31,357 nucleotides of DNA from Coprobacillaceae bacterium (GTDB lineage: Bacteria > Bacillota_I > Bacilli_A > Erysipelotrichales > Coprobacillaceae), in NCBI GenBank assembly GCA_031555175.1, contig JAVBUP010000003.1, positions 1 to 31,357 on the forward strand, read 5' to 3'. Positions 28,677-28,784 of this stretch are shown piece after piece (within the stretch, counting starts at the first letter, position 1; every line of letters begins with the position of its first letter). Position numbers and translations under genes: made by a program. The notes beneath the pieces are model-generated. The model ran no database searches. It was not told the origin of the DNA and saw only the letters and a program-made list of their open reading frames with translations.

Positions 28677-28784
28677 ATGAAAAGAATTATTGCTATTTTA
28701 GTATTTGCGTTAGTAGTCAACGCGTTCCCGATTATTAAGCCAATGGGCGGAAGATGTCCGATGCCACTTTGCGGGGAACTTTAG
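28677..28784 (+). CDS. 35-aa secreted-peptide precursor (MKRIIAILVFALVVNAFPIIKPMGGRCPMPLCGEL), candidate pheromone/signalling peptide
   Basis: Strong SD AAAGGAGGA 7 nt upstream. Signal-peptide-like N-terminus with VNA/F cleavage context. Stop is 1 nt before the start of the HTH-TPR regulator gene. Not in the ORF track (<60 aa). Confidence 0.45.
   Translation: MKRIIAILVFALVVNAFPIIKPMGGRCPMPLCGEL

Follow-up and report, generated by a model that had tools for sequence, protein, structure and literature searches.

A candidate RRNPP-type propeptide-receptor cassette of unusual sequence in a Coprobacillaceae bacterium

The Locus

The window considered here is the whole stretch of DNA that was analyzed, 31,357 nt in length, with an overall GC content of 31%. 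Within it, hflX (27208-28470) is followed by a short hairpin and a 206-nt AT-rich spacer (24% GC), beyond which lies a 35-codon ORF on the + strand (28677-28784; ATG at 28677, TAG at 28782-28784), a candidate pheromone propeptide gene with the 35-aa product MKRIIAILVFALVVNAFPIIKPMGGRCPMPLCGEL. A Shine-Dalgarno (SD) sequence, AAAGGAGGA (28661-28669, + strand), stands before it with a 7-nt spacer, and after the TAG a single G leads to the ATG at 28786 of a 421-aa ORF (28786-30051, + strand), the product of which, P0001, is an orphan TPR-superhelix protein and a candidate intracellular peptide receptor or regulator. A preliminary description of this DNA had proposed the small ORF, a near-perfect SD, a 7-nt spacing, and a stop 1 nt ahead of the 421-aa start codon; all of these were confirmed on the sequence, and the pair is placed for translational coupling. 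Further on lies a truncated paralogue of 211 aa (30257-30892, + strand), which is 38% identical to P0001 residues 5-181.

Several other features of the window deserve mention. Two adjacent secreted proteins are encoded at 22830-26081, one with a dockerin and a cadherin-like domain and the second with a cohesin, a cadherin-like domain, and a C-terminal membrane anchor; together they have the appearance of a minimal cohesin-dockerin pair for the cell surface, the genome being of 31% GC and of non-cellulolytic type. A T-box leader (16139-16340; 104.9 bits) begins 164 nt ahead of a gene for a class II aminoacyl-tRNA synthetase (16303-17766) and extends over 38 nt at the start of the listed ORF. 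There is a tRNA gene at 215-287, and three consecutive paralogous genes at 18695-20482 each end in a SHOCT domain, one of them also containing a bacterial PH domain, with a TM2-domain protein encoded next.

The 35-Codon Gene

The coding character of the small ORF was assessed by taking the 280 ORFs of 20-80 aa that the window contains in its six frames and filtering them for three features: an SD of 5 nt or more that is spaced 4-12 nt from the start codon, a K/R-containing n-region, and an uncharged stretch of 11 or more hydrophobic residues. Only the 28677-28784 ORF passes this combined filter for an SD and a signal-like start (1 of 280), and 100 dinucleotide shuffles of the window yielded a mean of 0.02 passing ORFs, with a maximum of 1. 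Scored against the codon usage of the window's own genes, for which true genes give 11.7 +/- 5.2 per 35 codons, the ORF has a log-likelihood of +5.95 in frame and negative values in the other five frames. Its GC content is 42%, versus 24% in the intergenic DNA immediately before it. The existence of the ORF, the signals for its translation, and its non-random character are directly seen, and the earlier idea of a secreted-peptide gene finds support in that the ORF looks genuinely translated. Overall, we consider it very probable that 28677-28784 is a real gene.

This gene is atypical in one respect, namely its GC3, which is counted in 14 of 35 codons versus 21% in the window genes (binomial p 0.009). 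Possible causes of the GC excess include recent acquisition, slow-translation codons, and a constraint at the nucleic-acid level. An RNA-element reading of the region was rejected, as an Rfam scan returned zero families and RNA folding was no better than that of shuffles (z -0.33). The gene had been described as unannotated, which proved incorrect: the public protein collection includes the exact 35-aa product, a singleton (P0010) called on this same contig. In the word-indexed protein collection, a search with the peptide, padded with MPTVS to reach the 40-aa search minimum, retrieved only itself.

The Signal-Like N-Terminus and the C-Terminal Part

The first part of the peptide, MKRIIAILVFALVVNA (28677-28724, + strand), is signal-like according to its sequence, the (-3,-1) rule, and a heuristic scan. 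It consists of an MKR n-region with a charge of +2 and an uncharged h-region of 11 residues, IIAILVFALVV; mean Kyte-Doolittle hydropathy over peptide residues 4-16 is 2.95. The context V-N-A16/F17 obeys the (-3,-1) rule, with V at -3 and A at -1, and cleavage at VNA16 would leave a C-terminal part of 19 aa, FPIIKPMGGRCPMPLCGEL (28725-28781, + strand), with two cysteines, C27 and C32, within CPMPLC. The sequence statements made previously about the VNA/F context, the 19-aa remainder, and the cysteines are therefore correct, while disulfide cyclization of C27 and C32 is a conjecture. A literature search for a cysteine-containing RRNPP pheromone found nothing relevant.

The N-terminus is similar in style to those of two secreted proteins of the same organism, the cohesin protein at 24681, which opens with MKKIIMILSMLTIFMINPLQAHA/A, and the dockerin protein at 22830, which opens with MKIK...FYIIKVQA/A, and this resemblance is in keeping with its designation as signal-like. 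The predicted signal of the peptide comprises 16 aa, compared with 23-30 residues in those two proteins, and is short for a Gram-positive signal peptide, so that either cleavage by signal peptidase or SHP-like intramembrane processing is conceivable. Going by the processing of RRNPP propeptides (PMC9765709), the C-terminal 19 aa would contain the mature signal, probably as a shorter C-terminal fragment.

Three other classes of exported peptide were considered and rejected. A Pfam LPAM_1 match (E 0.026) can be traced to the signal-like N-terminus alone, and the h-region is not followed by an adjoining lipobox, which speaks against a lipoprotein. An Agr-type system of cyclic thiolactone peptides (AgrD/AgrB) would have a processing protease of the AgrB type and a receptor histidine kinase beside the peptide gene; the neighboring genes encode neither AgrB nor AgrC but HflX, the TPR protein, and a membrane protein with a Gate domain. 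The GG at residues 24-25 is preceded by a hydrophobic signal-like segment and not by an amphipathic leader, which argues against a double-glycine leader; the window contains no ABC or C39-peptidase gene. The 31-kb window contains no opp genes, and no immunity, transporter, or modification genes were found near the small ORF.

The 421-aa Protein and Its Relatives

P0001 has few relatives. A word-indexed search of 5.8 billion proteins retrieved only P0001 itself, and the same search with the family alignment as query retrieved only P0001 and P0007. HMMER over 1.84 billion representatives gave nine proteins, including P0001, its 211-aa neighbor, about four or five longer proteins related through their TPR repeats only, and three full-length relatives, P0006-P0008, of 415-430 aa (23-24% identity, E 5e-5 to 1e-4). 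The five family members can be aligned over their whole length and have in common a C-terminal 'TK.YKA' end; in the N-terminal domain R23, F40, I49, C50, T54, E59, Y71, and K77 are invariant. A metagenome scan with P0001 found one unrelated 674-aa TPR protein with the word YQDAINCFEQA in common. At the level of sequence comparison, both P0001 and the peptide are singletons without comparative support.

Profile searches were similarly sparse. The sole Pfam match of P0001 is TPR_2 (E 8e-4), which at 19.8 bits is below the 27-bit cut-off, and the homologue P0007 clears the Pfam cut-off for TPR_1. No family was assigned to P0001 by NCBIfam or PHROGs, and no profile of the Rap, Rgg, NprR, PlcR, PrgX, or AimR subfamilies gave a significant match in Pfam, NCBIfam, or PHROGs. 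Of the proposed designation as an HTH+TPR protein, the TPR part accordingly stands, if sub-threshold in Pfam, and the HTH part finds no backing in Pfam or NCBIfam.

Predicted Fold and the Question of an HTH

AlphaFold reached a pLDDT of 39 with the single sequence of P0001 and 76.5 with the five-sequence alignment, the latter model being all-alpha with values of ~90 over residues 10-100. In Foldseek the top list for this model comprises RapF, phi3T Rap, RapJ, pLS20 Rap, and NprR (E from 9e-4); seven of the eight best matches are Rap proteins, followed by NprR and Rgg2, the latter at rank 37. The best fold matches of the model are RapI, a phage Rap, PlcR, NprR, and pLS20 Rap. RRNPP receptors thus lead both fold rankings, with generic TPR proteins scoring close behind, and a viral fold library returned generic TPR and Sel1 matches only. 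The best PDB sequence match of the family profile is also pLS20 Rap (E 1.2e-4), over a stretch of only 108 residues. Judged by the predicted model, the fold of P0001 looks closest to those of Gram-positive peptide-pheromone receptors, and it is in this model that the RRNPP-like fold of the small gene's partner is directly seen.

These data also bear on the simplest alternative, in which the small ORF is an untranslated chance ORF and P0001 a generic TPR scaffold. The lack of close homologues for either protein, the sub-threshold Pfam TPR match, and the proximity of generic TPR proteins to RRNPP receptors in the fold searches would all be expected in that case. However, a real gene is favored by the SD and its spacing, by the codon score and GC step, and by the shuffle control, there is an independent gene call, and RRNPP receptors top both fold rankings, which together make this alternative highly improbable.

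An N-terminal HTH had been assumed in the preliminary description, and profile searches gave this claim no support: no Pfam profile for an HTH matches P0001 at E <= 10, there is none in NCBIfam, and PDB sequences yielded no HTH match. What was found is an invariant I-C-x-x-x-T-x-S-x-x-E-x-G stretch resembling the recognition helix of PlcR (ICHQSEVSRIESG). By hhalign, family positions about 47-87 align with PlcR 26-65 (P 4e-4) and positions 48-82 with residues 27-62 of a five-member XRE alignment (P 0.018), the statistics being weak in both cases; the references were PlcR, SinR, 434 repressor, 434 Cro, and P22 C2, with sequences that agreed exactly with the PDB in every alignment displayed. Both comparisons fall in one register, covering helices 3-5 of the PlcR/XRE HTH and leaving helices 1-2 unaligned, and in the family 10-25 extra residues are inserted ahead of the putative recognition helix, where the helix 2-3 turn would be expected. 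DNA binding by P0001 is a plausible prediction.

P0007 (locus L001, 273-1559) carries at residues ~45-66 a cysteine-rich insertion, KICSECEKKCKTKDRIC, where P0001 has GFIRDEDGDRIC. A metal- or redox-dependent N-terminal domain in this family is possible, C50 of P0001 being invariant.

Conservation and the Truncated Paralogue

No orthologue of P0001 was detected among the species representatives of GTDB or in JGI metagenomes, nor, by tblastn, in plasmids or phages. The closest HflX proteins (54-56% identity) are from Thomasclavelia and Coprobacillaceae, which puts the host within or close to the Erysipelotrichales, and tblastn of 33 hflX loci from related and other genomes with the receptor, the peptide, and the homologues revealed no syntenic cassette. 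The peptide ORF had been expected to be conserved beside homologous regulators, an expectation that failed for the two relatives considered: the 272 nt upstream of P0007 contain no + strand ORF of at least 20 codons, and upstream of P0006 there is no credible small signal-bearing ORF of at least 20 aa. These relatives are distant (~23% identity), which makes this a weak test. As far as sequence searches reach, conservation is therefore not seen among distant relatives, and no close ones were found for comparison. The gene context of P0006 (L037, 1903-4944) differs from that of the window cassette, with a divergent ECF-type sigma factor gene upstream, a 167-aa secreted protein encoded 190 nt downstream, and then two unknown genes and an ABC ATPase.

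The paralogue at 30257-30892 consists of the N-terminal half only and has its own SD, and no credible candidate for a peptide gene precedes it. A 26-aa ORF at 30174-30254, MRMKFVNYNLILYAYIIYITNNHEVR, is SHP-like in its basic N-terminus and hydrophobic core and ends 2 nt before the paralogue ATG; it was rejected as the paralogue's peptide gene in that it has no SD and starts within a conserved promoter block. Further on, at 31163-31204, there is a faint same-frame remnant of the C-terminus (SNCRFVQYYHLCYN versus ANRKIINYYFLKYN, E 0.36), and because of this the paralogue is probably a decaying duplicate.

Two further explanations of the small ORF are best weighed against these observations. One is that it is a leader ORF feeding ribosomes to a weakly initiating regulator gene, its peptide being functionless. 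The SD of P0001 itself is weak (GGGGA at 28773-28777, 8 nt before the ATG), which favors coupling to the small ORF, and the strong SD of the small ORF, the stop-to-start gap of 1 nt, and the lack of demonstrable conservation are all in keeping with such a leader. Nevertheless, a leader would have no reason to carry a textbook arrangement of n-, h-, and c-region with V-N-A, which arises by chance 0.02 times per window, and the paralogue does without a comparable leader ORF, relying on an SD of its own. We regard a mere leader as distinctly unlikely.

The other explanation is that the small ORF encodes an exported or membrane-anchored product that is not the ligand of P0001, such as a small membrane protein or a bacteriocin-like or toxic peptide, with the TPR protein regulating it, assisting it, or merely being co-transcribed. 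The hydrophobic stretch I4-I20 (17 residues) could be a single membrane anchor, the distant P0001 homologues and the paralogue occur without such a peptide, and the odd codon composition suggests a separate history. Against this, a 1-nt junction with an RRNPP-fold receptor-like protein is what one would expect for a propeptide gene next to its receptor gene, immunity, transporter, and modification genes are lacking nearby, and there is no antisense-RNA or other RNA family. Such a non-ligand product, together with any of these three roles for the TPR protein, appears unlikely.

Promoter DNA and a Candidate Target Operon

The DNA in front of the cassette contains several elements that recur in front of the paralogue, the two promoters being homologous with a mean column identity of 71%. 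A perfect 9+2+9 palindrome, TCGATTTTGGTCAAAATCGA (28569-28588), is a candidate operator for a dimeric regulator and lies directly 5' of the cassette box; in the paralogue promoter, TTTTTTAGCCAAAAAA is found at the aligned place. The box itself, GAGTTAAACTCCTTTTTGCAT (28589-28609, + strand), has the pattern AGTTAAAC N5 TTTGCAT, and a second copy, TAGTTAAACAACTATTTGCAT (30149-30169, + strand), lies in the paralogue promoter. The exact AGTTAAAC-N5-TTTGCAT pattern occurs in the window only at 28590 and 30150. A consensus scan placed a promoter-like site (TTGAAA, 17 nt, TATTCT) at 28627-28655 on the + strand, and at the aligned position the paralogue has TTGTAA, 17 nt, and TATGCT.

A third copy of the box, TAGTTAAACTCCTTTTT (10694-10710, + strand), is a candidate regulon site 151 nt before a MACPF gene; the first 16 nt of the box are identical at 10695, and the distance to an ATTT(G/C) element is unchanged. 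The candidate target operon that follows (10846-15994, + strand) encodes a MACPF protein of 487 aa without a signal peptide, an Mbeg1/lipase-like protein of 650 aa, and a PI-PLC-X protein with a ricin-B lectin domain (558 aa), and judging from its predicted products it looks like a cytolysin/phospholipase set. Control of this operon by the cassette, for which the common box is the sole ground, is suggestive and no more, because 0.9 repeated 16-mers are expected by chance per shuffled window.

A Proposed Peptide-Signaling Cassette

Taken together, these features point to an RRNPP-type propeptide-receptor quorum-sensing cassette of two genes translated in tandem, a reading to which we give about an even chance. 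RRNPP_detector defines the RRNPP signature by five criteria (PMC10075063), and four of the five are found here: a small propeptide (35 aa, for a range of 10-100), a receptor of suitable size (421 aa, for about 250-500), TPRs, and adjacency (1-nt junction, same strand). The TPRs are those of the sub-threshold Pfam TPR_2 match in P0001, for which peptide binding is predicted. The fifth criterion asks for a Sec/SPI secretion signal or a match to the SHP profile, and on this point the peptide shows the rule-of-thumb features described above together with an unusually short predicted signal of 16 aa. A propeptide gene upstream of its receptor gene is a known arrangement (PMC9765709). The cassette would work like an RRNPP system yet fits no known subfamily, since the sequence-level tests that would place it fail.

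We envisage that a single promoter would drive both the small ORF and the P0001 gene, which would be translated one after the other. The 35-aa product would enter the membrane through MKR and the IIAILVFALVV segment, and its C-terminal part would be freed by signal peptidase after VNA16 or by an SHP-type intramembrane protease. A C-terminal fragment from ...KPMGGRCPMPLCGEL would then build up outside the cell, be re-imported, and bind the concave face of the P0001 TPR superhelix. This binding would alter receptor activity at sites adjoining the AGTTAAAC box, namely its own promoter and the paralogue promoter, and perhaps also at the MACPF/lipase/PI-PLC operon. In this scheme we infer that the peptide is secreted, processed, imported, and bound by P0001, and likewise that the receptor binds DNA and has the regulon described.

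A bolder version would be a new RRNPP-fold receptor family with a remodeled, possibly Cys-dependent DNA-binding domain and a Cys-X4-Cys pheromone that is cyclized or has some other modification of its thiols, switching on the MACPF/lipase/PI-PLC operon in a gut-type Erysipelotrichales bacterium, which we consider decidedly improbable. If this were true, it would represent a PlcR-like quorum switch for virulence or cytolysis outside Bacilli with a chemically new type of pheromone. More probably, the cassette is of an ordinary cell-to-cell signaling type that is built from very unusual sequences; its significance would grow if a modified Cys-X4-Cys signal or control of the MACPF/PI-PLC operon were shown.

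If the RRNPP-type reading is right, RRNPP signaling would gain a receptor lineage that is very divergent and that has practically no relatives among billions of public proteins, in a host group (Erysipelotrichales/Coprobacillaceae-like) that is common in animal guts and in which such signaling has hardly been studied. A peptide from ...RCPMPLCGEL would then control a putative pore-forming/phospholipase toxin operon, in parallel to PapR and the PlcR regulon in Bacillus cereus. In addition, a homology-free signature, that is, an SD-preceded, signal-bearing small ORF beside a TPR protein, would recover systems that are missed by profile libraries. If the reading is wrong, little is lost, namely one small ORF in one contig.

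Comparison with Known Systems

In the Bacillus cereus group, NprR-NprX and PlcR-PapR each pair an RRNPP receptor that has an HTH and TPRs with a Sec-exported propeptide; they share several features with the cassette and differ from it in others. NprR has about 423 aa, compared with 421 aa for the receptor here, and NprR and PlcR likewise have an N-terminal domain of ~80 aa followed by a TPR superhelix. The 'IC....(L/V)S.IE.G' motif aligns with the PlcR recognition helix, and both NprR-NprX and PlcR-PapR have an adjoining co-oriented small gene with a signal-like N-terminus. The PlcR regulon is defined by the palindromic PlcR box (PMC2464732), to which the palindrome upstream of the cassette is comparable, and the promoter here is perhaps auto-regulated; the operon for a PI-PLC and a pore-former with the common box recalls the PlcR virulence regulon. 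Unlike the case for NprR-NprX and PlcR-PapR, the peptide gene is upstream and coupled rather than downstream, and P0001 belongs to no Pfam or NCBIfam family. The putative HTH is interrupted between helices 2 and 3 by an insertion and goes undetected by all HTH profiles, and the propeptide, at 35 aa, is shorter than those of NprX and PapR and has two cysteines. The hosts also differ, being Bacillus for NprR and PlcR and Erysipelotrichales-like here.

The Rap-Phr systems of Bacillus, phages phi3T and phi105, and plasmid pLS20 differ from the cassette in gene order, phr coming after rap. In Rap proteins the N-terminus forms a 3-helix bundle, a DNA-binding domain is lacking, and the targets are response regulators or anti-repressors; their identity to P0001 is only 8-14%, and the N-terminal domain of P0001 looks XRE-derived.

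Rgg-SHP, ComR-ComS, and PrgX-PrgQ use short hydrophobic peptides processed by PptAB/Eep. The cassette resembles these systems in its very short propeptide with a basic N-terminus and a hydrophobic core, and in that the mature signal is expected from the C-terminus. Unlike Rgg, P0001 is not matched by the C-terminal domain model TIGR01716 and is about 130 aa longer, and the peptide differs from SHPs in having a C-terminal half that is polar, rich in proline, and Cys-containing.
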